Of a stretch of DNA of 64,000 nt, positions 22,530 through 49,292 are shown one piece after another. The notes under the pieces are model-generated. The model worked only from the letters and a program-made list of their open reading frames with translations. It made no database searches and was not told the DNA's origin. The DNA comes from Schmidtea polychroa (lineage: Eukaryota), in assembly GCA_044892525.1 (NCBI GenBank), contig CM097885.1, forward strand, positions 45,136,001 through 45,200,000. Direction: 5' to 3'. The translations under genes and the position numbers were made by a program. Position 1 is the first letter of the stretch; each line of letters starts with the position of its first letter.

Positions 22530-24360
22530 TGTTGATGTCTCTAAACAAAAATTATATTAAATGAAAATAAAATGGAAATTGAATGTAACAAATAGAAAGA
22601 AAATTGTGATCAATCACATAAATGATGGCTGTTGTTGGTTTCCTATGTATATACGTGTTATTATTATTTTTATTATGTTATTATTAAGTGTTATTGTTGA
22701 TATGTATTAGGAGTTTGTAGAACCCGGTAGAGTCTCCAGTAAAAAGTGTGCCAGGACAACCGGGGTGTTTGTATGTAGCTTGATAGAAAAAATACAACAA
22801 CAATAAATAGTAATCACAGACTTTATCAACTAGAAGAAAAACACACTTTTCCAGGTTCGATCAACGAGTCACAGTTATAGAACTATATCTTTTGATTGAA
22901 TATACAATTAGTCTATGACTGCTTTCTGAGAAGGAGATGAGCTTTTCCTAAATGTCTTCCTAGTATTCCATAATAATAAGGGTACTTCGTTTTGTGGGAA
23001 AAGAGATATGAATTACGATCTCAATTAGTTATTCTTAAACCGGAGATGCTTTCAGTTGTCTACACAGACTTCAGTATGAAACTAGGTAATCTGAGATCGG
23101 TTAAGTTGTCATTAGATATGATTCGTTACCAGGATTAGGTTAGGGGAAAATATGTGGATCGTTTATAAGCTGGGAAAGTATTCGGACTAATGTCATAGTT
23201 AATCTTCAACAGTGCCTTTAAATCCAAACAGTATTAGGAAATGGAAGGATAGGTGAATTGCTTCTGATTCTATAGGATATTTTAATTAAACTCTTGATTA
23301 GATCTTGGGAGGCTTTTCAGATTACAGCTGTTAGATTTTGTAGTTTAATTTTATTTGTTTATTGATCTTTCGATTCTTTTATTTCTGTCATGACAATACT
23401 CTAGTTTCACTTAACTATTATAAGCATTATAATAATGATAATAATCACAAATACGTAAAAAGAACAAATCTAACATGCAGTAATGATAATAATAAAATCA
23501 ACAATAATAACAAAAATAACAGTATATTACAATGGCAAAGTAAATTATGATGGAAACAGAGTTAGGAAAGGGTACAGTTAGATTCGAAATGCAAAATGCG
23601 GAAATTTAAGGAAAAATTAATAGATTTTATTTATCGAAATTGAATTTGGAAAACGGGACAGGTATAGACTAGCTAATGTCGAAAAACATGGTGATTAGGA
23701 ATCGGTCAGAAAATGTATAGGAAGAGTCAAAAAGTATGGAAATGCGTAAAAATAGAAAATCGTAAATTAATTAATTAATTGGCTAATGGAAAATCCGAGC
23801 TTAGCAAATACGAAGGGGTAACAGAAAAGCGCAATCAATCACCATTGGCTCTCAGACGATATTCAAGAAAATCGCTTGTCAACGCGTTGCCAGACAGAGA
23901 AAATTTGGCCGAAGCCTAATTAATCAAAATGAGTATTCTGGTACATAAGGAAACTAAGAATTAAAAACAATCGGCCTTTCGCCTCAGCTAAAAAGAAGAA
24001 AACGAGATTAGGTTAAAAGTAGCATAGTTAGAAGGAATAAGATAAAAAGGATTAGTGAAGCGATCAAATAAATGACTACAGCAGAGATCTCTAAAGAGCT
24101 GAATAAAGAGAAAACGAAATTGTTAACGAAAAAGAGTTCAATCCAGAGGAAGCTTATATATAAGGTGATTATTTTTATACAACACACGAGGTCAAGACAT
24201 CACACGGCGAATAGGACGTTATATCATTGTTGTGGATTTAAAAAGATTGTAGTAATTTGAAACAAAATATATACATTTGAAGTGTTATTTGTTGAAAATT
24301 TATAGAGCAAGAAGAGTAAGAGACACCGACTCGTAGTATTAAGTTTAATAAAACCCAAGA
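22530..24360 (+). mobile_element. Older family-A solo LTR (about 924 bp) interrupted by a family-B solo LTR
   Basis: Starts TGTTGATG and ends AAAACCCAAGA, with 4-bp TSD ATTC (22526-22529, 24361-24364). Clearly homologous to the LTR at 25320, e.g. AAAGGGTACA...TTATCGAAATTGAA...TTAATTAATTGGCTAATGG. Confidence 0.8.
22630..23531. mobile_element. Family-B solo LTR nested in the family-A solo LTR
   Basis: TG...ATTACA ends with 5-bp TSD ATGGC (22625-22629, 23532-23536); conserved hairpin at 22723-22764. Confidence 0.8.
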
Positions 24361-24825: not shown

Positions 24826-24951
24826 TATATGATTTTTTTATTACATCGTTAATTTTTCTGCAGTTGCCAGTGTACTGATATAATTTATTTCTCTTTTAAA
24901 CTTCAATATTCAAAGCTTTAGTTGATCCATTTTATTGAGTAAATTGATATA

Positions 24952-25319
24952 ATATAAACATTACAAGCTTTGTGATACCCAGTGCAAATTCCAATAGTAG
25001 ACTAGTTTCGAGCTTTTGGCTCTCATCTGTATTATGCTGGAGAAGTGAAGATTTTTCTTCGCGCCAGGTAAATATACAATATTGCTGATTCAACTCTATT
25101 GCATACATTCCCTGGTACACTGGAAATCATATCACCTGCAAATTAGACGTGATTTCCAGTGTACTAGGGAATGTACTAGGGTTCAGCAATATTGTATTCA
25201 TACCTGGCGCGGAGAGAAATTTTCACGTCTCCTGCATAGTACTAATGAGAGCCAAAAGCTAGAATCTAGTCTACTATTGGGATTTGCACTGGCTATCACA
25301 AAGCTTGTAATGTTTATAT
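24952..25319. repeat. Long imperfect palindrome (foldback/MITE-like)
   Basis: Arm 24952-25088 is the near reverse complement of 25183-25319. The spacer has a further inverted pair (GTACACTGGAAATCA / TGATTTCCAGTGTAC). Confidence 0.85.
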
Positions 25320-26307
25320 TGTTGAGGTTTGAAAATAAATTATTAAATTATATAGTTCAGATTAAAAGGAAAGCCGAAATTGAATGGCGGTCAAGCAGAG
25401 AAGCAATGGCAAAGAAAGATATGATAAAAACAGAACTATAAAAGGGTACAATCAGACATGAAATGGGAAAATGCGCAAACCGGAGGAAGTGGAATAAAGT
25501 GAAAAGTTATCGAAATTGAAGCTGGAAAACGGGAGAGGGGTAGATTAAGGGATGGTGAAGAAGACAGTGAGCAAGAAATTGTTAGAAAATGTGTAGAAAG
25601 GGTCGTAAAACAGACAAATGTGGAAAAACGTAAAATATTAATTAATTAATTGGCTAATGGGAAACCCGAGCTAATGAGAAGCCCGAGCCAATGGAGAACC
25701 CGAGCGATGAAGAAAACCCGAGCACGGCAATTTGGAAGGGTAAACAAACGAGGAATTCAGAGGGCCATTATCCAAACAACCGGATAAACGAGGGTAAACA
25801 AAAGACGGAGAATTACGAAAAGGGTCAACAAAAATAGTCAATTAGGGAATGATAGCGGAAGAAGTCAAAACCAATTAGGTCAAAAACGGGGCAATTACAA
25901 CGATTATGGGAGTATATAAGGAAACTCAAAATTCACATAATCGGCGATAGCCTTAGGTAGGGATACGAAGAAACAGACGATAGGAGTTCGAGGAATAAAA
26001 TAAAAGAAAAAAGGAATTATAAGAGGAATTTAGGAGTCAGAAAGGAATATTAAAAGAGTTCGGATCAGAGAGCGGAATCAAACAAAAGGTGAAACCTATT
26101 TTTTTAAATCGTACAAGGCCGAGACCTTCCAGAGCGGAGTTCGATCTGAAATTGTGTGAGAATTGTGATTAACCAACAGTGTGATTAATTGTTGAGAGTT
26201 CTGAATTGTTATAAAACAAATATACGTTGGGAGTTTGTGTTTATTGATTTTGGAACACGTGGAGTCTGAGTAACCAACGGTTGATTTTGATATCATAAAA
26301 CCCAACA
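25320..26307 (+). repeat. 5' LTR (988 bp)
   Basis: TGTTGAGG...AAAACCCAACA; TATATAAG at 25913-25920 and AATAAA near 25993; direct repeat of 33712-34665. Confidence 0.95.
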
Positions 26308-26314
26308 TATATTT

Positions 26315-26332
26315 TGGTGAGCCCGACGTGAT
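26315..26332 (+). promoter_or_regulatory. Primer binding site, tRNA-Trp type
   Basis: TGGTGAGCCCGACGTGAT differs at one position from the canonical Trp PBS TGGTGACCCCGACGTGAT; 7 nt separate it from the LTR end. Confidence 0.85.
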
Positions 26333-26457
26333 TAAACGTTGGTGGGCGAATATTGAAGGGTGAAAGAGGTGAAGAAAATTAAAGTAATAAGAAAATTGAA
26401 AATAATTGGAAATTGGAAGAGGTAGTAATTATTGATTATTAATTTTAATATTTAGCC

Positions 26458-28845
26458 GTGAGTGAATACAATTTGAGAAACCGAAAAGTAAAGATGGCCA
26501 GAGAGAACGCTGAGATGATAGATTTTGCCAGTTGTCAAAAATTACCGATGAATCAGTATGGAGGAGACCCGGTTGATTTTGCCGATTTCATGGGCGATTA
26601 TTATATGTACGCTTCGGCCTATGGGTGGTCACAAGCCATAATGGTACAAAGATTCCCACTCTATTTAAAAGGAGCCACAAGAGAAGCTTGGCAGCAAGTG
26701 GATAAAAAGACAATTGGAAATGATTGGGCCAAACTCAAGGATGCGATGGCAATGAAATTGGTGGGAGGCGATAAAAAAAGAATAATGCGCCAAAACTTTT
26801 ATGCCAGAGTACAAAATCCAAATGAATCGGTAAGTGAATTTGCATACCGTTTAACGACTTTAGCAGACAAAGCCTTCGAAGCAAAGCCTGAACAAGTGGA
26901 GATGGTAAAACAAGTCAGAGAATTGCTAGAAGATCAATTTATAACTGGAGCCCATCCTGAAATTAAAAAACCACTATGCTACGTGGATTTTTCGAATTTC
27001 GATGAACTCGTGAAAAAAGCAATGAAAATTGAATTGAATTTAAAAAGTACCAGAAAATCTGAAGTATTTGCCGCAAATGCCGAGAAAAGAGAAAGGTCGA
27101 TAACTCCAGTAAAGAATCAATGGGAATCAAAAGAACCAATTCAACCAAACAGCTCTCCAAGATTAGGTAATAAATTGGAAGTTAATAAAGCAACTTTTAG
27201 CAATCAAATAAACGAGATAGCGAAGAATATTGTATGCGAGTTTTGCAAGAAGCCTGGACATTATTCAAATCAATGTTGGTTCAGAAATGGTAGAAATATG
27301 AGTCCCAAAGGAAGACTTACTGAAAATAAGCCAAACAATGGTGACATTGAATGTCATCGATGTGGAAAAATGGGCCACATTAGCAGAAATTGTTTTTCAA
27401 GGACTATATCACCTTCTAGATATCCCAAGAAATCAAGTAAATTTCAAGATGAATCAATCAATGCCAATGTAGTTTATGCTCAAAAAGACGACTTTCAAGA
27501 AAAGATAGAAAATGAAGTTCGAGAAATGAGGAAAAAATTAGACAAGTTGATGTCGAAAATTGAATTTGATGATGAAGCAGACTCTTATATGGCGTACGAA
27601 AATATTTCGGAAAACTTTGCTAATAAAGTAAAAAATGACTTGTTGAACGAAAAGGCTACGTTGTTATTAAATAAAATGGAAAGATGGCTCGAAAATATGG
27701 AAACAAACAATCCAAGATTGAAAGAATGGGTTACAGAGTTAAGTCAGATCCAACTTAGTCATAAGAAATTGAAAAGTGCATTGAACTTATGTTCTAAGCT
27801 TTACAGCATACTCCAAGATGAGGAAATTGCTAAATTAATGAGAACATTTGGAAAAGCATTAAGATCCAAAAACGATTTGGATAATATTATCGTGGAGACC
27901 ACAGACATCAATGGTATTAAAGCTCAATTTTCTATCAATCCTTATGGACAAATCAAAGATTTGACAATGCTTATTCTGGCTAAATACAATAAAGGCAGCG
28001 TGAAATTGACACAACGGCAAATGGGACAACTGAGGGATGAGGAATACTTGGTAGATTGTGGTTTAATCCCTGGATTAAAAAATGAGGTAAATATTTTGGA
28101 TACTTTTAATCATTCAAATTCAGATTTTAAAAAATGGAACGAAATTTTAGGGAATTTGCGAGACATGTTATATATTGGAGATGAGGACGAGATCAATAAA
28201 TGTCTTGAATTAGTGATGAGTTCAAAAATGAATGGAAAAGATAAGGAGAAGCTGTTCGAATGTATTATGCCGCATATTCATAAAGAAACGAAATATCAAA
28301 CCAGATTAAAGGAAACTCTACGGAAATTAAAATATGATTACAGAGAACCGGAGTGTAATTCGAAATCATTAATGATAGCTCTAAATATTGATGGAAAAGT
28401 TGAATACTTTCAAGAGCACTGGAGCGTTAAGGTGTCAAAATTACGACAAAAAGCTGCAGAAACAATGGAAAATAATGAGATTATTGTACTGACTTACAAA
28501 GGAATAGTGTTGGACGATGACGAAAATTTAGTTAATTGCGGGTTTAATCCAAATGACATAAATAATGTTTATGCAACGAAGCCAAAGGATGACATGTCTG
28601 AAAACGAGGTCATTGTAACTCACTGGCCTAGAATCGTAAAAGAGGAAGATGATGAGATTGGAGCAATTAAAACTGAATTATCTGAGGAGCTAAATGAAGC
28701 TGAGTTGAAAGGTTTTGAGTCAAAAAACAAAATTTTACATGAAGTGCGAAATGGAAATGTAACTGATGTCAATGAAACTGATGCAGCAAGTCAAGAAATT
28801 TATAATATGAATGGCAAGCCGATAAAAACGGAAGAATTAAAATGA
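26458..28845 (+). CDS. gag: Gag polyprotein with capsid-like region, two CCHC zinc knuckles and two ubiquitin-like domains
   Basis: Retrotransposon-gag motifs (FPLYLKGATREAW; FYARVQNPNESVSEFAYRL; EDQFITG). Knuckles CEFCKKPGHYSNQC (27235-27276) and CHRCGKMGHISRNC (27352-27393). Ubl-like segments at 27883-28098 and 28363-28575. First ATG at 26494. Confidence 0.92.
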   Translation: MSEYNLRNRKVKMARENAEMIDFASCQKLPMNQYGGDPVDFADFMGDYYMYASAYGWSQAIMVQRFPLYLKGATREAWQQVDKKTIGNDWAKLKDAMAMKLVGGDKKRIMRQNFYARVQNPNESVSEFAYRLTTLADKAFEAKPEQVEMVKQVRELLEDQFITGAHPEIKKPLCYVDFSNFDELVKKAMKIELNLKSTRKSEVFAANAEKRERSITPVKNQWESKEPIQPNSSPRLGNKLEVNKATFSNQINEIAKNIVCEFCKKPGHYSNQCWFRNGRNMSPKGRLTENKPNNGDIECHRCGKMGHISRNCFSRTISPSRYPKKSSKFQDESINANVVYAQKDDFQEKIENEVREMRKKLDKLMSKIEFDDEADSYMAYENISENFANKVKNDLLNEKATLLLNKMERWLENMETNNPRLKEWVTELSQIQLSHKKLKSALNLCSKLYSILQDEEIAKLMRTFGKALRSKNDLDNIIVETTDINGIKAQFSINPYGQIKDLTMLILAKYNKGSVKLTQRQMGQLRDEEYLVDCGLIPGLKNEVNILDTFNHSNSDFKKWNEILGNLRDMLYIGDEDEINKCLELVMSSKMNGKDKEKLFECIMPHIHKETKYQTRLKETLRKLKYDYREPECNSKSLMIALNIDGKVEYFQEHWSVKVSKLRQKAAETMENNEIIVLTYKGIVLDDDENLVNCGFNPNDINNVYATKPKDDMSENEVIVTHWPRIVKEEDDEIGAIKTELSEELNEAELKGFESKNKILHEVRNGNVTDVNETDAASQEIYNMNGKPIKTEELK

Positions 28846-28848
28846 GAA

Positions 28849-30444
28849 TTGAAGTTTATTGAAATTGGTAATACTGATAAATCAAATAACCGTAAGCGGA
28901 AAAAGTGTGAGTTAACAGAAAAAGACGATTTAAGCGATGTAAAAATAGATTTAAATGATTTTATTAAAACAAAAGTGATTTTAAAAAGGTTGGTAATGGA
29001 AATATATGCACTAAATGAAGAGAATGTATATGAAAATGAATTTATGCAACAACTTGCGAAACAGCTGAAAAGGAGATTTCCAATCATACTTCAATATAGC
29101 GTTAAAGGAAATGTATTTTGTGATGAAACAGTAATCAAGAAGTTAATTAACAAGGGTTTGAACAGAGACGTAGTATTGACGGTTCTAGCTTGTATGGTCT
29201 TGAAAATTGGCACACATGGTTGTTTGGACTCGGAAAAAATGGAAAAGTGGATCGAAAAAGCCACCAAAGTGGCAAATACATATGTGACAAACTGGATAAA
29301 ATATAATGGTGGATGGAAAAATTTGGTACTAAAACCGAGGAATTCAAAAAGGGTGTATGAGTTAAAAAAGGCAAAAATGATATATACATGGTTGACGATG
29401 TTTGTTTTTGTAATTTTAGGAATCATCAACAATACAACGTTATTGGTAGTACATGATTATTCTCAAATTAAAAAGAAAATTCCCAGAAATGTAAAAATTT
29501 ATAAAGAATATAAAATTGTGAGTACTGATCTGAAAGAAAAGCAGAGGAAAAATTTCAAAGGTTGGGTAAAGAAATATCAGGATATTTTTATAAAACAAAA
29601 TGAAGCAAAAAGGGACACGAAACTTCAATTTACCAAAAATAAAACTTTAAACAGTTATAGTAATAAAGTGTTAATTACAACAAAACAAATAGAGAGTAAT
29701 AACTTACGAGAGCCATTCACACCGAATTATGACAAAAATACTTACGTGGCACGAGAGCTAAAGGCAAATTTCAAGCCCCCGTGGAGGAATAAACAAAACG
29801 AGACATACACTCCTGAAAAATTCAACAATCAAATTAGAGTTAAAGTAAAAACAAATGAATTATATAACATTGAGAAAGTTATAGAAAATAAATGGTCATT
29901 GTTTAAAGTTGACAGCCAGTTAAACCATTGGAAAAACGAGTCAAATCGAGTAGTTTTTACAGTTCAAAATAAATCAGCGATAGCATATCAAAATTCGGAA
30001 ATCGACAAAAGAAGCATTATCTGTAGTGGACAAAAAATTATCGTTTTGTTGGATGCCGGTAAAAGCTATTTTTCATTTATTACTCCTAATTTAGAATATA
30101 ATTACCTGATAAAAATTAAATACCAACAACGGATATTCGAGCCATATCGATGGCAAACAACTTTATTGGAGACAAAAATGGTGCCAAAGCTGAAATCCGA
30201 CATAACCATTACACGTCCAACTTCTACAAGTCAATATCAATTTAACAATCGTCTAATAAATAAACGGACTCAAATTGAGATTGGTCAAACTTTAATCATC
30301 TGTGAATATTCGATATACCTCATACTGACAGCATTCCTCATACTATCGCTTAGGTTAAGAGTAATAACAATCATTTTGTGTGGAAATAGACAGCATACTA
30401 TAAATGACTTACGACTCGAATCTTTCAATGTGATCAAAATGTGA
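28849..30444 (+). CDS. ORF2, in frame with gag: Bcl-2-like domain, TM anchor and degenerate pol-like remnants
   Basis: BH2 motif TNWIKYNGGWKNLV (29287-29328) with a degenerate BH1-like INKGLNRDVVLTVLACMV and a hydrophobic segment IYTWLTMFVFVILGII. Later KKYQDIF resembles the pre-RT linker, and IIVLLDAG (DAG at 30052-30060) resembles a retropepsin active site. Confidence 0.8.
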   Translation: MKFIEIGNTDKSNNRKRKKCELTEKDDLSDVKIDLNDFIKTKVILKRLVMEIYALNEENVYENEFMQQLAKQLKRRFPIILQYSVKGNVFCDETVIKKLINKGLNRDVVLTVLACMVLKIGTHGCLDSEKMEKWIEKATKVANTYVTNWIKYNGGWKNLVLKPRNSKRVYELKKAKMIYTWLTMFVFVILGIINNTTLLVVHDYSQIKKKIPRNVKIYKEYKIVSTDLKEKQRKNFKGWVKKYQDIFIKQNEAKRDTKLQFTKNKTLNSYSNKVLITTKQIESNNLREPFTPNYDKNTYVARELKANFKPPWRNKQNETYTPEKFNNQIRVKVKTNELYNIEKVIENKWSLFKVDSQLNHWKNESNRVVFTVQNKSAIAYQNSEIDKRSIICSGQKIIVLLDAGKSYFSFITPNLEYNYLIKIKYQQRIFEPYRWQTTLLETKMVPKLKSDITITRPTSTSQYQFNNRLINKRTQIEIGQTLIICEYSIYLILTAFLILSLRLRVITIILCGNRQHTINDLRLESFNVIKM

Positions 30445-31615
30445 TAAAAACTATATTATAAAATTACATGCGTGTAAACAAATTTTAAAAATTAGCATGG
30501 TTATATGAATGTAGATTTGTTACTGTGTTTGGTCGAACTTCGCTATGGTATGCTTGGCCTTGCGCGATAAAGAGTGTTTAAGAAAACTTTAATTATATTT
30601 AACTTCAGGAAGCCCAAGAGGAAGAGTCAATCAAAGAGTGTCGAAACTCAATGAAAGAAATGAGAAGATAAATGAAACCAATGGAGAGGAAAATTGACGA
30701 CTTGGAACTAGAAGATACGATTTGTAAAAGAAAGCTGGAAAGGATGGAAATTCTCTTGTTCCAATTCGAAGCTGAAATCGTATTGTTGAAAATGCAGATG
30801 CAGGGACAGGAATGACCTACTAATAAGGAGGGAGAGATGAACGCGGTACATTAAAATAATTTAATAATTGCTATTAATAAATATTTACAATGAAAACCTC
30901 ACTTTCGTCCTCGAAGTACCAAAAATAATGAGAAAGACTAAACAAAAAAAAAATAAATAAATTAACTAATAAAATTTAATAATAATAGCATAAAGAAATG
31001 ATAGCAAATAAATAAAATAAAAATTTGTAACCTAAGACTTAAAATTGAATAATCAAAATGAGTTCATTAAAATTTGATAAAATGTGCATTTAAAATTGGA
31101 TAAAACCGACACAAAATCTGTCGCTGTACCATAGCAAACACGCTCTATAATTAATAATGCATAATTGATAGCTTCCAATCATTAAGATACACTCAACATT
31201 TAGATAGGAAGCTTGTTATATTGGAAAATCGAATTCCTATTACAAGGAAGATGAAAGAGAAATATTTAATAATGAAATGGAAAATTATTTTTTAATATTT
31301 TTTTTTGAATGGTTATTAGAATGTAATTTTTCACATAAATAATTTTAAAGGTTTAATAATTTTCTATTAACTGTCTTAAAATTGCTCATTTGAAATCCAA
31401 ACGATATTGGGCATGAATACATATTGCGGTAACGACACAAGCTACTCCAAGAAAAAGCATAATAATAAAATAATAAAATGTAAAATAATAATTTGTAGTT
31501 ACATTTAACAAAAAAAAAATTTTTTTCCATTACAGCAAGTCACAAACTTGATACAGAACTTCTGTTTCCATTCTTCAGCTGTTTTCCGCTGTAATCGACC
31601 ATAACTATCTTCAAG

Positions 31616-31947
31616 TCAACGAGCTCTTGAAACTTGTAGTTCAAGTTCTTTTTCATTGAAAATGGATATCAAATTTTTGGGTATGATTTCGTAAAACCCT
31701 TCGAGAAAACTATGAAGTTGTTGGTGAATAGCTCCAATCATTTTCTCTTGACAAACTAATTTAACAGATTCAGATTTATTTTCCTCTGTGAGAAGCACTA
31801 GAGAGTTTCTGTCGGTCCAAATTCTGATATTTGAATAGAAAACGTTTGATAGAGAGACATTGTCAAAACATCCTTTTCTATAGGAATTCCGAACCAGGGA
31901 AAAACTGATAGTATTCTTTTTCTAGATCAGTACATCAAATATATTTG
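31616..31947 (-). pseudogene. HUWE1: Captured HECT-domain exon fragment of a HUWE1-type E3 ubiquitin ligase, antisense to the LTR element
   Basis: Reads [15 protein letters not shown]..., (frameshift) [21 protein letters not shown]..., [52 protein letters not shown]. This is colinear with the HUWE1 HECT as recalled. An acceptor-like TTACAG lies at 31953-31948. Confidence 0.85.
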
Positions 31948-33601
31948 CTGTAATTTTTAATGAGTTATCAAAAAGTTCTATTATTTAACAATAATTCATT
32001 TTTCATGAAATTTCAAGCCTGAAAAGCATATCAAAATTATTAAAAATAATTTTTAAATAAAATTTATATAGAATATTATTAAATTAAATAAAAAAATGAT
32101 AAAATAAAATGGTCTTACAAAATAGGCAATAAAACTAAATTAAATCTAGTCAAGTAGTGTGTAAAAATCCAATACACACTACATAGTTCTTATTGTAGAA
32201 ATGCCGAGTGTGTGTTTGTAGAATGCACGAACCATCATCCGGAATTAGAGTGCGCTTGGAACGATCTGTAGAGAAATATTGTTGATTGCCTAACATGTTC
32301 AATAAAATTTTGTATCCTCTACTGTGACATTAATTCCAATTCTTTTATTTTTTCAAATATCAGTGATGACAATAAAGATCTTATTAAACGAAAATTCAAA
32401 AATAAAAATGCCATTATTTTTACTTTAGATATCGACTTAAATGTTGATGGTTCATACATTTTCCACTTCAATAATACCAATCAATTAATTCAAAAGCTTT
32501 TAGAATTTTTATCTCAACAACATCGAACTTTTTCATTACAGGCACTTATTGATAAATTGGAATTCCCATCGACAAATAATTTGGGTCGATTATTCTCTAT
32601 TAATTGGAAATGATTTTTGACAGCTATTTCTGATTAATTTATATAAAATCAAAATTTTTACATAATCATATTTTTGATATCTAATAATAATTCATTATTT
32701 TGTTATTAATTTTCTGATTTGCTATTAATTGATTGATGATTTGTTATTAATTGCTGATTTGTTATTAATTGATTTGCTGTTTCTTATCATAACTTAGGTT
32801 CTGAACAGTTAATTGTCTGAGAGATTAGTACTTTCTTGAATTGAATTGAATTTTTTGAGTTGGATTGGTTGTGATGTTATCAAGTGCATGGCTTCTACGA
32901 ACACACCCAACTGAAAATAAATAAATAAAATTCAATTAGCAAATCATCCTTACCGTAGTTGATTAAAATAACAAATAATGTCGAAGTTTTGTTGTGATGG
33001 AATAAATAAAATTCAATTAGCAAATTACAAACTAAATGATTACCAGACAAATCCGAATGAGATTTTGGGTAGTAGTACAGTTTATATATGATATTTCTCT
33101 GCCAGCAGTAATTACACAGCACTTCAGCACCAGCCGATCAGAATTGATAAGACACGCCTATATCGTAGATTGTTTGGTATATTTGTGTATTTGGGTTGAT
33201 GTGAGTTTGGAATCACTGTTTGTGCAACCACTACACAAATCAATGTTTATCATATTGGTTCCGGTGGACGGTTGGAGTGGGTCGTTTGAAAATTAGCTCC
33301 TATCTCGGAACAAACAAACTGTGATAAATTTTAACCTCCTTTAACTCGATTCAAATGTTGATCGATGGAATATTTTAAATTGAACTGCAATGATAAAACT
33401 GATATATGGGTAATCTAAATCATTAAACATTATGCATGTTAAATTAAAGACGAATTTTAATAAAATTAATAATAGTCTAATAAAGTCTAATAAAATTAAT
33501 AATAGTCTCAAAATTTTAAATATCTATCAATTTAAAAAAAAAATAATCTCAAAATTTTAATATTCTAAATATTTTATGACTCTCCAATCAAATGAAATTA
33601 A

Positions 33602-33698: not shown

Positions 33699-33711
33699 AA
33701 GGGGGGAGATA
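33699..33711 (+). promoter_or_regulatory. Polypurine tract
   Basis: AAGGGGGGAGATA immediately before the TG of the 3' LTR. Confidence 0.9.
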
Positions 33712-34665
33712 TGTTGAGGTTTGAAAATAAATTATTAAATTATATAGTTCAGATTAAAAGGAAAGCCGAAATTGAATGGCGGTCAAGCAGAGAAGCAATG
33801 GCAAAGAAAGATATGATAAAAACAGAACTATAAAAGGGTACAATCAGACATGAAATGGGAAAATGCGCAAACCGGAGGAAGTGGAATAAAGTGAAAAGTT
33901 ATCGAAATTGAAGCTGGAAAACGGGAGAGGGGTAGATTAAGGGATGGTGAAGAAGACAGTGAGCAAGAAATTGTTAGAAAATGTGTAGAAAGGGTCGTAA
34001 AACAGACAAATGTGGAAAAACGTAAAATATTAATTAATTAATTGGCTAATGGGAAACCCGAGCTAATGAGAAGCCCGAGCCAATGGAGAACCCGAGCGAT
34101 GAAGAAAACCCGAGCACGGCAATTTGGAAGGGTAAACAAACGAGGAATTCAGAGGGCCATTATCCAAACAACCGGATAAACGAGGGTAAACAAAAGACGG
34201 AGAATTACGAAGAGGGTCAACAAAAATAGTCAATTAGGGAATGATAGCGGAAGAAGTCAAAACCAATTAGGTCAAAAACGGGGCAATTACAACGATTATC
34301 GGCGATAGCCTTAGGTAGGGATACGAAGAAACAGACGATAGGAGTTCGAGGAATAAAATAAAAGAAAAAAGGAATTATAAGAGGAATTTAGGAGTCAGAA
34401 AGGAATATTAAAAGAGTTCGGATCAGAGAGCGGAATCAAACAAAAGGTGAAACCTATTTTTTTAAATCGTACAAGGCCGAGACCTTCCAGAGCGGAGTTC
34501 GATCTGAAATTGTGTGAGAATTGTGATTGACCAACAGTGTGATTAATTGTTGAGAGTTCTGAATTGTTATAAAACAAATATACGTTGGGAGTTTGTGTTT
34601 ATTGATTTTGGAACACGTGGAGTCTGAGTAACCAACGGTTGATTTTGATATCATAAAACCCAACA
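33712..34665 (+). repeat. 3' LTR (954 bp)
   Basis: Matches the 5' LTR except for a 34-bp deletion and two substitutions seen by eye (25820/34212, 26171/34529). Confidence 0.95.
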
Positions 34666-36441: not shown

Positions 36442-39188
36442 CAACGTTCCCTCTAATTTTTAAAATTGGTGTGTGTGTGCTAACTGCAATGTGGGCAAGT
36501 ATATTAAATTAAAAAAAAATTGGGCAAAATTTCAAAAAAAAATTTTTTTTTTCATTTTATTTTTGTAATATGTAAATAATAAAAAAATTTTACACGTTGC
36601 ATTATATTACATTCAAGCAAGTATTACTAATTTAATAAAAAGTTATAAATAGAAAACAAAAACAATATACCTATATTATATTCAAAAGGTAAAATAACTA
36701 TTAAAAATAAAAAATTATAAAATCAAAATTTAATGTTTTTCACGTCTGTCCTTATTAACAACCCAATGTTCATAAATACTGTCTAAATTAATATTGCCTC
36801 CTGATGTGATAAACGTTTTTATTCGCATCAAGTTATCTAAATTATTAATCTTTAATCTGTTTCGTGATTTTGATTTTATAGCATTCATCAAGCTAAAACC
36901 ACGTTCACAATCTGCACTGGATGACTGAAATGTAGCACAGATATCTAGAAGCACTGTCAATTCTTTAAATTGTGAATCTGCATTAGCCAGCTTAACTAAA
37001 TCAAAAAAATTAGCTACGGAATTACTTTTCATCTTTTCAATTATTAAAAACTTAAAATCGTTATATTGTTTTGAAATTGATGTTCCAATTTGTTCGTCAT
37101 ATCCGGGAATTATATTTTTATATTTTTTAACCAGCTTTTCTATACAATCTTGACCAAAGTTAAAATCTTTTGAATTTATTATAGCATTATGATCAAATGC
37201 ATGCCAATCCATTACGTCTTCTTCTGGAAACCTATTCTTTAAATGTATACATAGCAATTCGATAAATCGTAAAATTGCTGAAGTGTCGATACCAGGATTT
37301 TTACCAATTAGATCTTTTATATCATTATTCCAATGAACTATTTCGCCTAAATATTGGTTTTCGATTTTGTTGATCCTTGCTTTAGCAAATTGCATTGCAT
37401 CCATTATTGTCAACAAACTCCTCTGAAATATTTTACAAAGAGATGACAACTCTTCAAGAACGTCATTTAAAACCATTAATGAAAGGCGATATTTTGGATC
37501 GTTAAGAAGTTTTAAGCAATATTTGCATATTGGATCATTACATTTCTCCACTTCCTCAGTGCAGTATTCTATCAATAGATCGTACTTACGAATAAATGCT
37601 CTTACTGCAAAATGTCTTGACAGCCATCTAACTTCCTTTAATGGACGAAATGCTAATACATCACATTCAGTTACGCTTGCCAATTCTTCAAAGCTTGCTT
37701 TCTTTACGGTTGATCTACTAAACATGGTAAATACTGTCTTTAATAATGTTTCAATATCACACATTATTGGTACTTTTTCCAAGCATCATCAATTCCTAAA
37801 TCTTCCTTGTGTGCTACACAATGCTGCTGCGATAAATGAGGGATTCTGTTCCGTAACAATGCAGCCACACCATTATTCTTACCAAGCATTACAGAAGCAC
37901 CGTCTGATGTAAACATTACCATATTATGCATATTGATATTATTTTTTATATAAAATTCATAAATAGCTTCAAATATGAAGGAACTAGTACATCCAGTCAA
38001 TTTTAAAATTCCTGCAAATACGGTTTTATGGTCAGAAGAAGTTTTTGGCCGGTATTTTATGTATAAAATTAAAGTTTTGTGTGTAGATATATCAGTACTT
38101 TCATCAACAATTAAACAATGAAATAACGATTCTCTTAGTTCCTCAAGAAACTGTTTTTGTATTACAAAAAGTAATGCATTGAACAAATTCGAATGCATAA
38201 TTCTTGCTGCGCCAACTTTTGGGAATAGATATATATTTTTCCATATACTCATGAATTTCCTGTACTGATGACATCGAAGTGTTAATTTTTATTGCAAGAA
38301 TAACGTTGTCTATCAAAATTTTGGTATCGTTTTTATTAGATTTTTTACGTTCTATCAAATCTGCACGTATCTGTCGTTCTTCTGTAGAGGAAGTTAACAT
38401 TTCAACAATTCCACCTTTTTTGCAATTACGTAATTTTATTACCGAATCTAAATGTACTTTTTGGCTTAAATGCCTCTTTGAGTAGTACAACTTCCAATTC
38501 GCCCAGTTTTTGCCATTTTTAAACTCACTTTCAGTTTTTGCTTCGGTACATATTTTGCAAAGTACATCATTGGTTTCAATTTGATAATTAAAAATATCAC
38601 CTAATTTAATTTTTTCTTTTATAGTTGACGATGAGACGCATGTTTCAACAATTTCATTTAACCATTCTTTTTTGAATTTTGAAGATGTCTTGATTGTGGA
38701 TTTTAAGCTTTCATCGAATTTTCGTTTTGACATACTAAATGTATAAAAAATAAAGGGATTGCATTTTAAAATAATTTTTGAAATAAATATCACAGCCTTC
38801 TCAACATTAAAATAAATAATCAAAATCATAGTGCAAAATTTAATTTACTGTAGATTACTTACTTATTTATTATTTTTCTATCATGTCGTGGTGTTATCTG
38901 TTAGTTAATTTTAAATTTCACATCCACATTTATTGAATTCAAAAAAGTGAACATTGACATTTAATTTCAATGTTGCCAATTGAGACATACTAAAACAAAT
39001 AACCCAGAATTTAGTGTGGAAATCTATACGAAATTTTCAACTGGGTGCGTTTACGCAATGAAAATGGTGACAAATAAAAAAAATTATTGTTTGCAATAAT
39101 TTCTAGTGGGCGGATAGAAATGCTGAGTGGGCAAATGTCAATTTTTAACTGGGCGGCCGCCCGTTTGCCCAGCTTAGAGGGAACGTTG
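36442..39188 (-). mobile_element. Full-length hAT transposon (2747 bp) with a twice-frameshifted transposase (ZNF862-like)
   Basis: TIRs CAACGTTCCCTCTAA / TTAGAGGGAACGTTG with 8-bp TSD GTAATTAC (36434-36441, 39189-39196). Overlapping ORFs 38143-38829, 37764-38252 (VDESTD, SDGASVM, HCVAHK) and 36730-37782 (RWLSR, SSADCERGFSLMN). Confidence 0.95.
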
Positions 39189-39936
39189 GTAATTACATTT
39201 AATATCTTTTATAATCCCATTAATAATAATGATAGTAATACCACGTAATAAAATTCTGACTAATAATTAGTATAACAATGGCCATTAAGATAATAACCAT
39301 AGAGATAAAATTAAAAAAAATAATGTTAATAATAATAGTGATGCTTATAATAATGGGGAATAATAATGATAATGATAAACAACCTTATTAGTATTCATAA
39401 TAATAATAAAAATCCTGGTGCTAATAATGGTAACAATAATAGGGATAATAATAACCGTCACCATAATTAAATGTTAATATAAGCCCTTTGCTGTGAAAAT
39501 CCAACACTTTTTGTCATCATTATTACAAGATGTTACCCGTCAAAAATAATGTAGCAATTTTTTAGTTTCGATATATTTAATCTATATTTAATTGTATTCA
39601 AAACATATAATTGAAAAACTTTTTAATGACAATAATTTTAGTAAATGTTTTCGAGTTATTAAGTAATTGGCCCTGATATAATATAGTTTTTTAATATTTA
39701 TCTACTTATAATTATAGAGTAGTATAAAAATTATTTATCGGACAGACNNNNNNNNNNNNNNNNNNNNNNNNNNNNNNNNNNNNNNNNNNNNNNNNNNNNN
39801 NNNNNNNNNNNNNNNNNNNNNNNNNNNNNNNNNNNNNNNNNNNNNNNNNNNNNNNNNNNNNNNNNNNNNNNNNNNNNNNNNNNNNNNNNNNNNNNNNNNN
39901 NNNNNTAAGCCTTTTGCTGCAAATAATGTATTTAAT

Positions 39937-39975
39937 GAAAGAATTTTCGACTATACGATAGTCCTTGTCAATCTC
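39937..39975 (-). ncRNA. Minimal type I hammerhead ribozyme, U3-A8 variant, sense to the PLE
   Basis: GAGA-UUGACAA-G-GACUAU(CGU)AUAGUC-GAA-AAUU-C-UUUC. Confidence 0.75.
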
Positions 39976-40380
39976 CTGGAATTTAGCAATGTTCTTCTTC
40001 AAAATACCCTTCAATCTTTCTTTTATTTCCTTTCTCTTAATTCTCATTGGTTGTAAATATAATGAATTGTTTTACTAAAAACTTTTAAAATTTTTTTATA
40101 ATTTTTACATTTAAAATTTCAAAATGACACAAACTAAAATTTTTAAATTTTTTACAGCTTCTATAATTAGCTTCTAGAAGCCTAATAAAATATTTGAAAA
40201 TATTTTAAATAAAGCCTCCAATAACTACTTATATATGCTATTTAAATATTTCAATAAATGTGTCAATTTTGATTTTCAAACCCTATTTTTTAAAATTTTT
40301 TTCTATATTATTCTAATTATTACTTTTTAATTTATTCTTATTTTTTTAATTTCTTTGTATATTGTCAGTTATTCTCAAAG

Positions 40381-42951
40381 TCAATGACAACAGATCAAAT
40401 TCATGATTTCATTGATTTCTTCTTTAGTGTTGATCTTTGGCTGTCTGTTTATTATGAGAATTGCTTCTTTGATTCTGACATTTTTCTTTTGGATGTTTCC
40501 ATTAGCTATGATTTCTATTGAAATATTTTTTCTTTCCTCTGTTGGCTGACACTGCCGGAGATGTCTGCCCAACGAGGATGTTCCACCAGGATCTAGATGT
40601 TCTTTAACTCTTTGGTGCAATGTCCTGAGGGTACTTCCAATGTAGATTTCATTGCATACATTGCACGTGATGCAATAGACGATGTTTTTTCTAAAGCACC
40701 TATCTTTCGGTGTCTGGCAGTTTTTCATTGTGCAATTGTTTTCTCTATTTATGTTGCCTGCCAGAGCCCTTCTCAATGTCCAAGATTTATGTGCTATCCG
40801 AATTGGAAGACCGGTACGTTTAAGTTCTTTCAGGATCTTGAAGTCGAGTATGTCACTGATGAATGGGATATTCAGATAGAAATATTTCTGATTCTTTTGT
40901 GTTAATTCCCTAGATCTTCTTGGGGTAGAATTCATTTTTTCAATGTCCTCACCTTGGTATCCGTTTCGGTGTAGGATTTTATTGAAATTTGATTGCTCTT
41001 TAAAGTTTTCGTTTTTCTCCGTGCATCGATTGGCTATTCTTCGTTTCTCGTTTCTTATGACATTTACTTTCTGTAAGTATGGAAGCGCTGATCTTTGGTG
41101 CATAAATATTTCTTTGCGAGCTGGTTTTCTGTAGAACCCGTATGTTGGAGTATTTTCTTCTATTTTGATTCTCAAATCCAATAAATTGAGGGATCCATCT
41201 TCTTCCGGATATTCGATTTCGAACTTAATATCTTGATGAGCCGCATTGAATGAATGAAATATTTCCTCCGCTTCTTTTCTGTTTTTGGTCAAGATGAAGA
41301 TATCATCTACATATCTTGCATAGAAACCGATGGGTTGTATGGTCCTCAGTGTCTGTCGTTCGAGGTTATCCATAAAGATGATTGCTAGCAGTCCTGATAT
41401 GCTAGAACCCATAGGCAGACCTTTAACTTGTTTATAGATATTTTGTTCAAAGGTAAAATAGGTGTTCTCGAGGATAACAGTAAGTAGTTTGGTGATATTC
41501 TCGGTATTCATTTCCTTTATTAACAAGTTGCTTTCTCTTAATTTCTTTTCTAAACATTGAATAGCCTCTGTTGGTTCGATAGATGTGTATAGTGATACGA
41601 CATCAAGACTAAATGGGTATTGGAATTCTCTATGACAAGTCATGTTATTATTTAGTCTTGTCATGAGGCAGTCGCTGCTTTGAAGATGGTGTGGTATCGT
41701 GTCCAATAAAGGTTTCAAGATCTTTGCAAGGAGCCAACTTGTTTTAGTTGTTGGTCCATTTTTGTTGGACACTATAGGTCTAATTTTGATACCAGGACCC
41801 TCTTTGTGAGTTTTAATTAGGTGGTAGAAGTTAGGAAGATCAGAATTTTTTGTGACGAAGCTGTTGGTTATTCTGTTGTTGAGCCTCATTTCCAAAGCTA
41901 TGGCTTTCCATACTTTGTTGATCTTCATTTCGATGGTGTTTGGTGACATGCGGCTGACTTTCTTGTATGTTTCGATGTTGCCGAGGTGTTCGTAACCAGC
42001 TTCACAGTAACGATTCTTCTCTATAATGCAAAATTCTCCCCCCTTGTCACTTGGTAAGTAAACGTACGGTTTCTTTTTAAGGGATTTTAATATTGCCTGT
42101 TCGTCTTTCGTTAGGTTTGAGAGATATGGTTTTCTTCTTTCCTTCTCAACTAACTCCATGATTTTGTGACAGACCTTTGAGAGTGTTGAATCTAATTCTG
42201 CATCAGGATTTGGTTGATAGAGTTTATCTGTGTTTATGTATACTGGGAGCTGGTTTTCGCTATTTTCATTTTCATGCGGTATTGTATTGTTCCATTTGAT
42301 CTGGTACGCAATGCGACAAAGAGCTGTTTTGAAATTGAGGATGGCTGCTTCATCTATTTCTCTGTTTATACTGAACTTTGGTCCTAGTGAAAGTAATCCT
42401 TTTTCACCTTTGGATAGACAATTTGTGAGGTCGGTTACTAGTTCTTTGTTCACTGTAATGCTTTCGTTTCCGTCCAGTGTTTCATTGTTCTTAACAAGGC
42501 CTGCTTTGAGCTCCTTTTTTCTCAAAAGGTGTTTGATTCTTTTGTCAAATCGCAAGGAATAATGTACTTCTGCTGTCATGAAGGATTGTCTTTGTACCTC
42601 GTAGATCAATTCTTTTGGGTGGTTATTCAAATACGTTTTCAAAATGTTTTCTTGATTCTTTTGTTCCCGATGAGTTTCTCCGTACATACTTCTAATTAAA
42701 TTTGTTAAAATATAATCTTTGATGTTTTTATTTCTCTTGATGTTTTGATCTTTGTTGAGAATCTGAGGTAAGTGGATGTTATCAATTGTTGTTGGAAAGA
42801 TCTTTATTTCCTTACATCGGCGAAGGAAATTTATTTGGCAGTATAATTTCGCAATTTTCTCGTTGATTCTAGCTAAATTCCGTATTTCCAAGTATTTTGC
42901 CCGGCTCAGGCCTTTTGAAAGTATAAAATGATGATTGCTTGGTAGCAGCAT
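40381..42951 (-). CDS. Penelope-like reverse transcriptase with GIY-YIG endonuclease, 856 aa, uninterrupted
   Basis: PSDKGG, KIRPIVS, SLDVVSLYTSI, GLPMGSSISGLLA and YARYVDDIF motifs; C-terminal NIVYCITCNVCNEIYIGSTLRTLHQRVKEH. Confidence 0.96.
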   Translation of the reverse strand: MLLPSNHHFILSKGLSRAKYLEIRNLARINEKIAKLYCQINFLRRCKEIKIFPTTIDNIHLPQILNKDQNIKRNKNIKDYILTNLIRSMYGETHREQKNQENILKTYLNNHPKELIYEVQRQSFMTAEVHYSLRFDKRIKHLLRKKELKAGLVKNNETLDGNESITVNKELVTDLTNCLSKGEKGLLSLGPKFSINREIDEAAILNFKTALCRIAYQIKWNNTIPHENENSENQLPVYINTDKLYQPNPDAELDSTLSKVCHKIMELVEKERRKPYLSNLTKDEQAILKSLKKKPYVYLPSDKGGEFCIIEKNRYCEAGYEHLGNIETYKKVSRMSPNTIEMKINKVWKAIALEMRLNNRITNSFVTKNSDLPNFYHLIKTHKEGPGIKIRPIVSNKNGPTTKTSWLLAKILKPLLDTIPHHLQSSDCLMTRLNNNMTCHREFQYPFSLDVVSLYTSIEPTEAIQCLEKKLRESNLLIKEMNTENITKLLTVILENTYFTFEQNIYKQVKGLPMGSSISGLLAIIFMDNLERQTLRTIQPIGFYARYVDDIFILTKNRKEAEEIFHSFNAAHQDIKFEIEYPEEDGSLNLLDLRIKIEENTPTYGFYRKPARKEIFMHQRSALPYLQKVNVIRNEKRRIANRCTEKNENFKEQSNFNKILHRNGYQGEDIEKMNSTPRRSRELTQKNQKYFYLNIPFISDILDFKILKELKRTGLPIRIAHKSWTLRRALAGNINRENNCTMKNCQTPKDRCFRKNIVYCITCNVCNEIYIGSTLRTLHQRVKEHLDPGGTSSLGRHLRQCQPTEERKNISIEIIANGNIQKKNVRIKEAILIINRQPKINTKEEINEIMNLICCH

Positions 42952-43209
42952 TTATTATTTAAAACAATAAAATGATAATTTAAGCCTTTTGCTGCAAATA
43001 ATGCTTCTAGAAGCTAATTATAGAAGCTGTAAAAAATTTAAAAATTTTAGTTTGTGTCATTTTGAAATTTTAAATGTAAAAATTATAAAAAAAATTTTAA
43101 AAGTTTTTAGTAAAACAATTCATTATATTTACAACCAATGAGAATTAAGAGAAAGGAAATAAAAGAAAGATTGAAGGGTATTTTGAAGAAGAACATTGCT
43201 AAATTCCAG

Positions 43210-43248
43210 GAGATTGACAAGGACTATCGTATAGTCGAAAATTCTTTC
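43210..43248 (+). ncRNA. Second, identical hammerhead copy in the inverted pLTR
   Basis: Same sequence as 39937-39975 on the opposite strand. Confidence 0.75.
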
Positions 43249-43287
43249 ATTAAATACATTATTTGCAGCAAAAGGCTTAAATTATCA

Positions 43288-46796: not shown

Positions 46797-47860
46797 CTAT
46801 ATCGGTGTCACCTCCCTATAATGGCCATATACCAAACTTTGATTTTTATCCACCCAATTCCGCTTATCATCTCTACACGTATTATTTTTAATACTAAAAA
46901 GTTGGTGATTCTTCGATGTTATTCTAAACTGAGGGACTATGTATATTTCATCGTTTAAATAATCTAGATACGACTGATGTGTTAATCCAGTATCTTTCAT
47001 ACTAATCCCCTTGGCCTTCATACTTTCCTCATCACCCATTAAACTGTAACATTTAGGTCTCAAGAACACCCAATCTTTATATAATAGTCCTTTATCCTCG
47101 TCTTTGAATTTACAAATGACAGAATCAATGTTCCTAATATATAAAGGATGATTTGGGTCATAATTCGAAGTATCTAATAATTGATCCCTAATCATCGCAG
47201 GTAAAAAATGTCAAGACTACAATGCCTAATTTCCAAGGAGGAATCAGTGTCCCCAGCAACGATATTAATTTCGCAGTTGAATTCGTCGCGATATTTTTGC
47301 AACTCTTCATACTGCAGCTGGTACATCCTAAGTTTGGATAAATCTAGTACAGTTTGACCAATGTAACTAGGTCTATCCAAACACACTGTGTCCTTCCTCA
47401 ATAAAACCGAAATCAAGTCATCGATTTTCGTGGATTTACGAAAAGTCGGTTTCGAACATAATGTTAATAATTTCTGTGCAGAATTACACAGACGTAAATT
47501 AATACGTTTTTTAAGATTTTCAACAGTCTTGCCGTAAAGCCTGTTGTTTAATAATTTATAAAAGTTTTTGTCAAGTTTATTTGTCGACGCTGCTCGTAAC
47601 GCCGTATTTGTGTTAATATAATTTTGAATATTTTATCTTGCTTAAATTTAATTGCTCTATGTATTTTTGATATTTTAACACCTAATTTAATAAATATTTG
47701 CAGAAGCCTCCGATGAAGAACATAGTTCCTCTTGGCGCTGTGTGTAAGCAACAGCTTCTCAATTTTCGAAAAGAGGGTACACACCTTTTCAGCGGCAACG
47801 GGAATATCATCCAGTTTATCGTGAATTGACGTCAGTATATCTAAATCCACTTCTATGGTA
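46797..47860 (-). mobile_element. Polinton/Maverick protein-primed DNA polymerase B, C-terminal fragments (frameshifted)
   Basis: GYTIEVDL, FYKLLNNRLYGKTVEN, RPSYIGQTVLDLSKLRMY, IVAGDTDS, LRPKCYS...KAKGIS and DDKR motifs. Confidence 0.88.
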
Positions 47861-48732
47861 TAACCAATGTTCCCTCTAAGCTGCGCGGCCGCGCAGCTGC
47901 TAAAAATCATTCGCGCACTTGTTTTTTTTTAATTTTTAAAAATATTGTTACAAAATTATTTATATTCCTATACAAAGTATATACAACATATTTAAAAAAA
48001 AATTAGAAAAACATTCAAAATTTTGAAAATAAAACCCCATGAAAAAAAAGTTAGTTACTTTCATCAAACTACCGGCTTTCTTTCATATTTACCATAGCAA
48101 CGGTCGTTTTTTATTTTTGCATTCTTAAATTTCATGGCAATTTATTTTATGCTTTTGTTAGTTATAATATTTTCATTAGTATCTCTGTAACTGTGCAACT
48201 AAGTAAATTCGTGTTTGTTCAACTTAAAAAAAACTAATTTGTTTTATAACTGGAGATTGTGGTAAAATTTAAAGTATTTGCAATGATGAAAATAAGTTAA
48301 TAAATTTCAAATTTCTAGGACAAAAAAAATAAATCCTGAACAAAAATTCAAACAATCTGCTAAATAAAATTATCATATTAATTTTATAGTTATAAATTAT
48401 TCTATATTCAAAAAGAATTATTTCTAAGTTATTTAATTTATAATAATACTATATTTATTATAGATTATATTAATTAATACAAAACTATCAAACATATTGT
48501 CGTTATTTATTCTTTCACTTTGCTCTTGCATGGGTATTTGGAATTAACACCCTTTATCTACCTATACTAGGGTTAGTATTTAGATCTATAGTATAGAAGG
48601 TACGACACATATAATTCCAAATGTAAGTATAAATCACATTTTAACATTTCTTTAATTTTTTTTCATAATTCTTATAATAGCTTATTCTTACATATTAATT
48701 TATTCTAGTTTATCAAACTTCTTACTAGAAAG

Positions 48733-48850
48733 TAGGGCTTGCAATACCGGATCAAATTTTCAAAACCGGTATTTCGGTATATCATTATATTAATACCGGG
48801 ATCCCGGTATTAATACCGGTATTTAAGAAAAACAAAAAAAAGCAAAACTG
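48733..48850 (+). mobile_element. hAT left-end fragment
   Basis: TAGGGCTTGCAATACCGG with repeated AATACCGG motifs, similar to the terminus at 280. Confidence 0.65.
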
Positions 48851-48866
48851 TTACAAAATAATTAAA

Positions 48867-49292
48867 ATGTCGTTTAAAAACATGAAAAAGATAAATCTAC
48901 CCGAAACTTTCACTGACAAATTATTATCCACAATCAAGGAGATGAAAACTGTCAAAGTTCAATTCGGGATAGAATCTGATTTCGAAAAGGATGGAGAATT
49001 CAAATCATCAAAATTTCCTAGCAAAGCTGTGATGGTAACTGAGAACAATTTTGAAAAGTTTATTGCAGATGGTATTGAAAAACTGCACGAAAAAATTCTT
49101 ATCAGATCGGAACTTGGAAGCGAGTGGCGTCTGATTAGAATAATTGATATTAATTTCAAAATAACTAAGATTTCTGAAATATCCAGATTATCCGGAAGAA
49201 ATTATATTCCAACTCCGAAAGCCTTAGTAAATAAAAATAAATGTGATAAATGGAAATTATGTGTTTCGTATATAGTGTGCTGCCCAATTTGA
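48867..49292 (+). mobile_element. Polinton pPolB N-terminal fragment
   Basis: ELGSEWRLIRIIDINFKITK...LSGRNYIPTPKALVNK matches the GSGW...GSSYIxLP region that precedes the Polinton polymerase exonuclease. Confidence 0.65.

Follow-up and report, generated by a model that had tools for sequence, protein, structure and literature searches.

Why does an element encoding a Bcl-2-like protein carry part of a HECT ubiquitin-ligase gene in antisense, and does this piece act on the gene from which it was taken? The question arose from a sequence-only reading of the window, i.e., the whole stretch of 64,000 nucleotides from Schmidtea polychroa analysed here (contig CM097885.1), in which a decayed huwe1 exon with a possible intron was noticed on the minus strand of such an element and small-RNA targeting of huwe1 was proposed.

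The carrier element

The carrier is a pol-less derivative of a Burro-type LTR retrotransposon. Burro elements are giant Gypsy-like LTR retrotransposons of planarians (PMC6431247), which are abundant and controlled by piRNAs (PMC8532177) and have been reported to protect planarian stem cells via captured anti-apoptotic coding domains (PMC13465017, citing Lee et al. 2026). Apart from the 3' region, the window copy revealed the following parts:

25320..26307, plus strand: 5' LTR (TG...CA), with an ATAT target-site duplication
~26316-26333, plus strand: primer-binding site after the 5' LTR, which we take to resemble tRNA-Trp
26449..28845, plus strand: Gag with zinc knuckles and a weak ubiquitin-like domain (Pfam)
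28846..30444, plus strand: predicted Bcl-2-like domain with hydrophobic tail, then remnants of the polyprotein C-terminus
33712..34665, plus strand: 3' LTR, with a purine tract just before it (~33699-33711)

Since the two LTRs differ at only 2 of 954 aligned positions and by one indel of 34 nt, the insertion is young. The Gag region matched the Pfam families Retrotrans_gag (E = 1e-8), zf-CCHC (9e-8), and ubiquitin (0.028) and aligned at 63% identity with the N-terminus of a 3,329-aa relative. Such a frame, encoding Gag, fusion glycoprotein, protease, RT, RNase H, and integrase, is found in relatives that have the same LTR, and in relative L348, Gag-(Ubl)-BCL2-like-env-PR-RT-RH-IN are joined in a single polyprotein. 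Of the 3,329-aa ORF, the window copy corresponds to the two ends, with env, PR, RT, RH, and IN deleted, and a stop codon (28843-28845) separates its gag and Bcl-2-like frames at a place where many sister copies possess open frames of about 1,310-1,330 aa. Altogether, the family includes 1,159 Bcl-2-like candidates in the genome.

The earlier description of a Bcl-2-encoding element agreed with our results, as the carrier has LTRs and a weak but consistent Bcl-2-like domain. Pfam detected Bcl-2 in six of seven family members, with a best E-value of 0.0024 that is below the cut-off, and all 56 PDB hits at E<=0.1 were Bcl-2 or Bcl-xL, each of them weak. A single-sequence model (pLDDT 53) led to a best Foldseek E-value of 0.09 with Bcl-2 family rows on top, while a protein search gave no match and Atlas resulted in sub-0.9 bacterial matches alone. 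The predicted label also agrees with the published motif (PMC6431247).

According to the accessible part of that description, Burro and the carrier family have in common that one long polyprotein combines Gag and zinc knuckles with motifs of ubiquitin-like and BCL2-like type, an in-frame fusion glycoprotein, and PR-RT-RH-IN (PMC6431247). In regard to size, Burro1 exceeds 30 kb and encodes 4,873 aa, whereas the long relatives here have about 16.5 kb and ORFs of 3,329-3,346 aa. Unlike Burro, the window copy lacks env and pol, and a 3' slot of host fragments does not appear in the same part of the Burro description. Pfam analysis of the 3,329-aa ORF revealed no BIR, RING, MATH, ankyrin, or dUTPase domain, i.e., neither the named cargo nor the length of Burro1 was found.

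RNA-like contigs of run X1 covered LTR, gag, and Bcl-2-like parts, none was placed on 31580-33463, and the back-joint within the huwe1 piece did not appear among the X1 or X7 contigs listed; these blanks are uninformative as to expression of the piece. One X1 contig joined 25541 to 29637, skipping 4,095 nt, which might represent a deleted copy or processed RNA. Several loci (L045/L046, L051-L054, L329-L337) displayed the same LTR and slot modules on internal regions diverged by 70-80%, pointing to frequent recombination between autonomous and pol-less subfamilies. A cluster of short remnants of the family, reaching from LTR to LTR and nearly identical, was located at L128 (G000:C1:265.48-265.63 Mb), where at least five of them lie within 150 kb. 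In the window itself, older LTR relatives of the carrier (71-75% identity) were located at 23530-23801 and 54268-54734, and the insertion point of the carrier is the end of a pair of 138-nt inverted repeats (89%; 24951-25320), probably a MITE.

Identity and interruption of the huwe1 piece

The minus-strand frame at 31616-31921 matched the Pfam HECT family (E=2.8e-11), which confirmed the decayed HECT fragment. HUWE1 occupied the best 9 of 50 rows in a PDB search with this frame (E=4e-19 vs. 7e-11 for NEDD4), and a protein search of the own genome resulted in 24 matches, namely element copies, a 33% identical paralogue, and the locus at C3:122.40 Mb (G000:C3). The latter is the only huwe1 locus among about 20 HECT loci of the genome, with HUWE1 as its best match (E=1e-121 vs. 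1e-70 for TOM1). Based on the PDB ranking and this single host locus, huwe1 and not another HECT gene was the source, as the sequence-only reading had supposed.

The host counterpart falls within one open exon of 681 codons. At the DNA level, the window aligned with this exon in three blocks, two of which (32229-32197 and 31940-31637) are colinear with the host, while the third (31638-31540) corresponds to host sequence about 690 nt farther upstream in the exon. The piece extends beyond the span first noticed to 31540, with an upstream exon part joined behind a downstream part, and is organized as follows:

32197..32229, minus strand: huwe1 piece A, first 33 nt (host C3:122404804-122404772)
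31942..32195, unstranded: TA-flanked dispersed repeat of 254 nt, inserted after capture and interrupting piece A
31637..31941, minus strand: huwe1 piece A, main part (host C3:122404770-122404444; 91% ungapped identity)
31540..31638, minus strand: huwe1 piece B (host C3:122405132-122405034; upstream exon part set behind piece A; 95% ungapped identity)

Piece A displays a 22-nt deletion, a frameshift, and a stop codon. A coding role of the 101-codon minus-strand frame was rejected, since no in-frame start with the HECT part precedes the frameshifted stretch and the changes look neutral. The huwe1 piece was found in at least 22 genomic places and is antisense in all of these 22 (of 52 candidates, 40 were scored; copy C54 possibly duplicates the copy at C2:9.84 Mb), in pol-less and long-frame copies alike, and five copies retain just 186 nt of it. 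The fragment is thus common to multiple copies, as anticipated, and a single-copy accident or assembly artefact was ruled out by these 22 copies and by the joint of A and B, which was also present in contigs of the DNA-like runs X2 and X4.

The proposed intron did not withstand comparison with the host. The splice-like words do exist (GTAAGA at 32118-32113 and TTACAG with its acceptor at 31948, 170 nt apart), and both lie inside the 254-nt repeat. In the genome, the host exon runs through without interruption; contigs of runs X1 and X7, in which two GT-AG introns farther downstream are spliced out, likewise span it as one 2,000-nt block. The repeat stands alone at C2:105.39 Mb (93%, same ends) and has at least 15 dispersed relatives (69-93% identity); it is whole in 6 of the 22 huwe1-piece copies and missing at an intact site in 10 of them. 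A lineage of five copies retains it partly, with internal deletions, and one older copy lacks the part of the huwe1 piece around the insertion site. The 254-nt sequence is a repeat inserted into the huwe1 piece after capture; the reading as a captured host intron was rejected, since the host has no intron there and both splice words sit in a dispersed repeat. Regarding the upstream degenerate exon that had also been suggested, 33 nt (32197-32229) are indeed huwe1 sequence, while the remainder of the claimed exon is not.

The 3' slot and the route of capture

In total, 40 loci (from 161 candidates) share window positions 30330-31129 at 95-100% identity. In the 34 of these loci that were analysed, the shared stretch is followed by 1.4-3.7 kb of patchwork that differs between subfamilies and ends at the purine tract; five of the 34 carry nested insertions and have no LTR within 7 kb. 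The 3' region of the carrier is a hypervariable, reshuffled slot, filled with different host pieces in each subfamily. Besides the huwe1 piece, the slot of the window copy contains:

31127..31395, plus strand: intron piece of an FAD-oxidoreductase gene, presumably GPD2-like (sense, 95%; single non-element match at C3:131.67 Mb)
31411..31546, minus strand: piece of a small single-exon membrane-protein gene (antisense; donor C2:78.50 Mb; exact run of 41 nt)
32227..32313, plus strand: piece resembling a non-coding stretch at C4:86.14 Mb (88%)
32332..32811, plus strand: 3' coding end and 3' flank of a CARD-domain gene (sense, 99%; donor C4:71.75 Mb)
32810..32898, plus strand: 89-nt repeat piece (98-99% in at least four non-element places)

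The membrane-protein piece is an older capture from a donor without a Pfam family, and possibly the oldest and most widely retained cargo of the slot. Antisense pieces of this kind (donor L217:1278-1748) were seen in the L089 type, the window type, both older copies, and long-frame copies, and a 44-nt core of it recurs in RNA-like contigs of X1, X6, and X7. The CARD-gene piece occurs in 11 copies and excludes the CARD itself; its donor, one of four CARD-domain loci detected in the genome, revealed RAIDD as the best PDB match.

Other subfamilies harbor an exon piece of a forkhead gene (antisense, 95%), the start of an innexin gene (sense), a single-exon GPCR-like frame piece (103 nt, sense; labelled by eye, without a Pfam match), a pacifastin-like frame (E 0.007, antisense), and a further antisense frame without a Pfam match, presumably acetylcholine-receptor-like. 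An intron piece of 217 nt (sense) derives from an ankyrin gene on whose strand a HECT domain follows 50 kb downstream; we take this gene to be HECTD1-like. Another piece, 1,364 nt of a karyopherin-like gene in antisense (L102 slot; donor L132:581-1943; about 30 copies), comprises an exon and both flanking intron parts and is direct evidence of unspliced capture; its family label comes from Atlas and is weak by the Atlas recognition score. In the slot of subfamily L097, we identified 546 nt of a 642-bp satellite unit (99%), which forms a tandem array at L445 (G000:C38:386000-394112) and gave no match in an Rfam search. Genome searches found no donor for the innexin piece, for 32227-32313, or for the widespread module L089:1755-1961.

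Altogether, about 11 host-gene pieces (exons and introns; six antisense, five sense) were counted in addition to satellite and repeats, a count that is biased toward exons, since several pieces were found by translation. Identity to the source ranges from 75-91% up to 99%, the latter in the CARD-gene and satellite pieces. Of 84 slot frames, Pfam assigned a family to two; for a second set of 28 frames, picked by eye from 158 slot frames and donor loci, it gave clear families for donor and flanking loci alone and just two weak matches for slot frames. Also left out of the count were a proteasome-subunit frame (L368) and an actin gene (L126), both located outside elements. Intron pieces with a single outside match are read as captures because most copies and older lineages lack them, though a move from element to intron is possible in principle. 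About 48% of the slot of the window copy is coding-exon sequence, whereas coding exons average a few percent of a genome; capture or retention was non-random, as this share far exceeds the average. Polinton-like polymerase elements were observed inside the slot of several copies (L114, L118, L111, L112), and one such insertion splits the huwe1-bearing copy at C1:30.37-30.39 Mb by 13.6 kb.

The sequence-only reading had taken the supposed huwe1 intron as a sign that genomic DNA or pre-mRNA was captured. This holds for the family via the intronic pieces and the exon with flanking introns, but not via the huwe1 piece. None of the pieces identified crosses a spliced junction.

The huwe1 piece itself is circularly permuted. 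In host sense, A (exon index 3196-3556) is followed by B (from 2868). In an older copy at C1:206.43 Mb, B extends to exon index 3194, and both the window lineage and the copy at C3:69.89 Mb have 3196 as the first position of A; a landing of both ends within 2 nt has a rough chance of 0.7%. A and B add up to about one turn of a segment of ~690 nt (C3:122405132-122404444), the two ends of the proposed circle being taken from different copies and the full turn occurring in no single one. Two older copies share the 22-nt deletion, one of them also the A-B joint; since joint and deletion are common to separate lineages, huwe1 was in all likelihood captured a single time.

The permutation suggests a circular intermediate, probably a small circle of DNA; circular RNA or a pair of repair jumps would be less likely origins. 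The exon segment C3:122405132-122404444 would have been closed into a circle on a 2-nt TA microhomology, opened again at one point with the loss of one base, and patched into the element during DNA repair. Copy-choice recombination in reverse transcription may then have shuffled slot modules between autonomous and pol-less copies, and later deletions would have trimmed the piece differently in each lineage. A canonical back-splice was ruled out, as no GT donor follows A. We consider it very unlikely that the passenger was captured from RNA, with reverse transcriptase switching onto circular or nascent huwe1 RNA in plus-strand synthesis and copying one turn. Such a template switch is a known route (PMC13317346), one exact turn would presumably also be expected from a reverse transcriptase with RNase H on circular RNA, the slot is biased to genes, and an AG precedes the start of B; against it, the joint has no GT donor, captures by the family include satellite and intron-bearing sequence in either orientation, and no spliced junction was crossed in the pieces identified. 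The permuted huwe1 piece likely records, as a fossil, how a small circular intermediate came into a retroelement.

What seems to be new is the capture in circularly permuted form, together with the modular 3' slot of Burro-type elements; the kind of carrier is known. The literature searched gave no report of a huwe1 piece or of a 3' host-fragment slot in Burro, although Lee 2026, Grohme 2018, and Henderson 2015 may contain one. Plant LTR elements (Bs1, Sirevirus), Pack-MULEs, and Helitrons are similar in carrying fragments of many unrelated donors per element, which can serve as small-RNA reservoirs and lead to epigenetic conflict (PMC13317346); in contrast, our carrier is an env-bearing LTR element of an animal, its slot is reshuffled among subfamilies, and one piece is circularly permuted.

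Passenger or guide

Based on tests of selection, we regard it as probable, though by no means certain, that the huwe1 piece is a decaying antisense fragment in a Burro-type 3' region, captured once as a circle of ~690 nt and carried as a passenger without a selected role against huwe1. Excess conservation was found neither in polymorphism nor in divergence or codon tests, which have low power on 200-400 nt. In the huwe1 parts that all 19 copies retain, 10 of 189 sites were segregating, compared with 24 of 355 in neighbouring pieces (P=0.58); the rest of piece A had 23 of 213. Divergence from older copies was 10-15% for the huwe1 piece, 9% for the LTR, and 12% for the conserved 3' region. Lineage-specific changes comprised 37 replacement and 20 silent ones, compared with 72% replacement expected at random (P=0.24), and at all six replacement sites shared by lineages the host retains the human residue. 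The captured host region showed no accelerated change or escape: in two close relatives, identity of captured vs. flanking sequence was 228/230 vs. 60/60 and 217/230 vs. 58/60, a test at the protein level in these two relatives and at the DNA level against element copies alone. The piece is also minority cargo, present in 9 of 40 subfamily loci (one inferred across the 13.6-kb insertion) and in at least 22 places against 1,159 family candidates, and carrier copies do not outnumber non-carriers (these counts being lower bounds).

The persistence of the huwe1 piece in three lineages that are about 10-13% apart, together with its remaining competence for pairing, speaks against a passenger. Exact runs to host huwe1 measure 28-51 nt across copies, and of 283 ungapped windows, 11 perfect 31-mers and 162 with two mismatches or better were found, so that the divergence is compatible with small-RNA pairing, as had been presupposed. 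In Drosophila, captures near 90% identity yielded donor piRNAs, while those near 80% did not (PMC13534243). Close precedents are the Drosophila telomeric retrotransposons TART-A/nxf2 and those with piwi/aub, which similarly hold a ~90% identical non-coding host fragment in an untranslated region with the potential to guide piRNAs (PMC7785250, PMC13534243). According to the accessible parts of both sources, their donors are piRNA genes, capture is recurrent, element-antisense piRNAs target the donor, evolution of the host region is accelerated, and families with a capture reach higher copy numbers. The huwe1 piece differs from TART-A/nxf2, being one capture in the opposite orientation, with a host gene that is not accelerated, and minority cargo.

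We hold it unlikely that the whole slot is retained with its host pieces as hostages or camouflage, so that piRNAs against the element also hit host genes and silencing is tempered. Under this view, as in TART-A/nxf2, targeting would fall mainly on pieces in sense orientation, among them the CARD-gene piece with its 99% identity; element-antisense guides would miss huwe1 and hit sense pieces, because the huwe1 piece lies antisense. The CARD-gene piece, with 278 perfect 31-mers in the window copy, is the best slot candidate for such targeting. The share of coding exons and the continual turnover of pieces agree with this view, as does the coding cargo of the family, which is related to apoptosis and ubiquitin (PMC6431247). 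BURRO elements are piRNA targets of nuclear SMEDWI-2 (PMC8532177), and precedents are described from maize (PMC13317346) and Drosophila (PMC7785250, PMC13534243). On the other hand, the sources include satellite, introns, and repeats, most modules are confined to a minority of copies, a genic bias could also stem from open chromatin or RNA templates without selection, and no piRNA-pathway gene was among the pieces identified, compared with 8 of 9 Drosophila captures in the accessible part of the source (PMC13534243).

The weak excess of CARD and HECT sources also bears on this view. Three of the ~11 slot gene sources are CARD or HECT genes (from four CARD and about 20 HECT loci in the genome); without huwe1, 2 of 10 have a rough chance of 0.0007 if these families alone count and of 0.03-0.09 for a broad ubiquitin/apoptosis class, values that are post hoc, use assumed base rates, and count a second HECT gene by a HECT domain 50 kb downstream. 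This excess (CARD gene at 99%, second HECT gene) keeps a TART/nxf2-like reading in play. Distinctly unlikely, by our estimate, is the more specific idea that a swappable 3' cassette of host sequence turns the piRNA defence of the host on cell-death and ubiquitin genes, with the CARD end, the antisense huwe1 circle, and the second HECT piece as its parts; if true, it would be the small-RNA arm of a polyprotein-encoded anti-apoptotic programme, fed partly by circular host DNA.

The role that the sequence-only reading had proposed, i.e., that antisense huwe1 RNA or element-sense piRNAs lower HUWE1 and thereby protect Bcl-2-type proteins, was not supported and is highly improbable. It could draw on the antisense orientation in all 22 copies, which are not independent after a single capture, on 37 possible 5'-U 31-mers with perfect pairing at positions 2-18, on the presence in long-ORF copies, and on an identity of ~91%, within the range effective in Drosophila (median ~90%, PMC13534243). 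However, the piece is one of many unrelated captures, it evolves like its neighbours, and neither conservation nor host escape left a signal. TART-A guides are antisense to the element (PMC7785250), and such guides here would have the same sense as huwe1 mRNA. Silencing of planarian huwe1 leads to more apoptosis and inhibits regeneration (review PMC8533874) and also causes hyper-proliferation (PMC8583885); since it increases apoptosis, it would oppose and not complement an anti-apoptotic cargo. A planarian link between HUWE1 and MCL-1 was not found in our search. With the huwe1 piece as a probable passenger, small-RNA cross-talk with huwe1 would, if present, be a side effect.

In an animal stem-cell system, the slot offers a natural test of piRNA redirection to donor genes by captured pieces: the donors are known together with their orientations, ages, and diagnostic alleles (about 35 differences in 436 nt for huwe1), and sister copies that lack a given piece can serve as controls. 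Without any small-RNA effect, the finding would be ordinary hitchhiking of gene fragments.

Further features were observed elsewhere in the window. A hAT-type transposase is present in pieces on the minus strand (36730-38844), followed by a Penelope-like element (RT and GIY-YIG; 40381-42951) with a 277-nt inverted repeat (39906-40181 / 43003-43279, 99.6%). Broken frames at 46797-49292 resemble, by eye and by likeness to frames of L111/L114, a Polinton-type DNA polymerase, and a tandem array of 27-nt units (11351-11860) is open on both strands.
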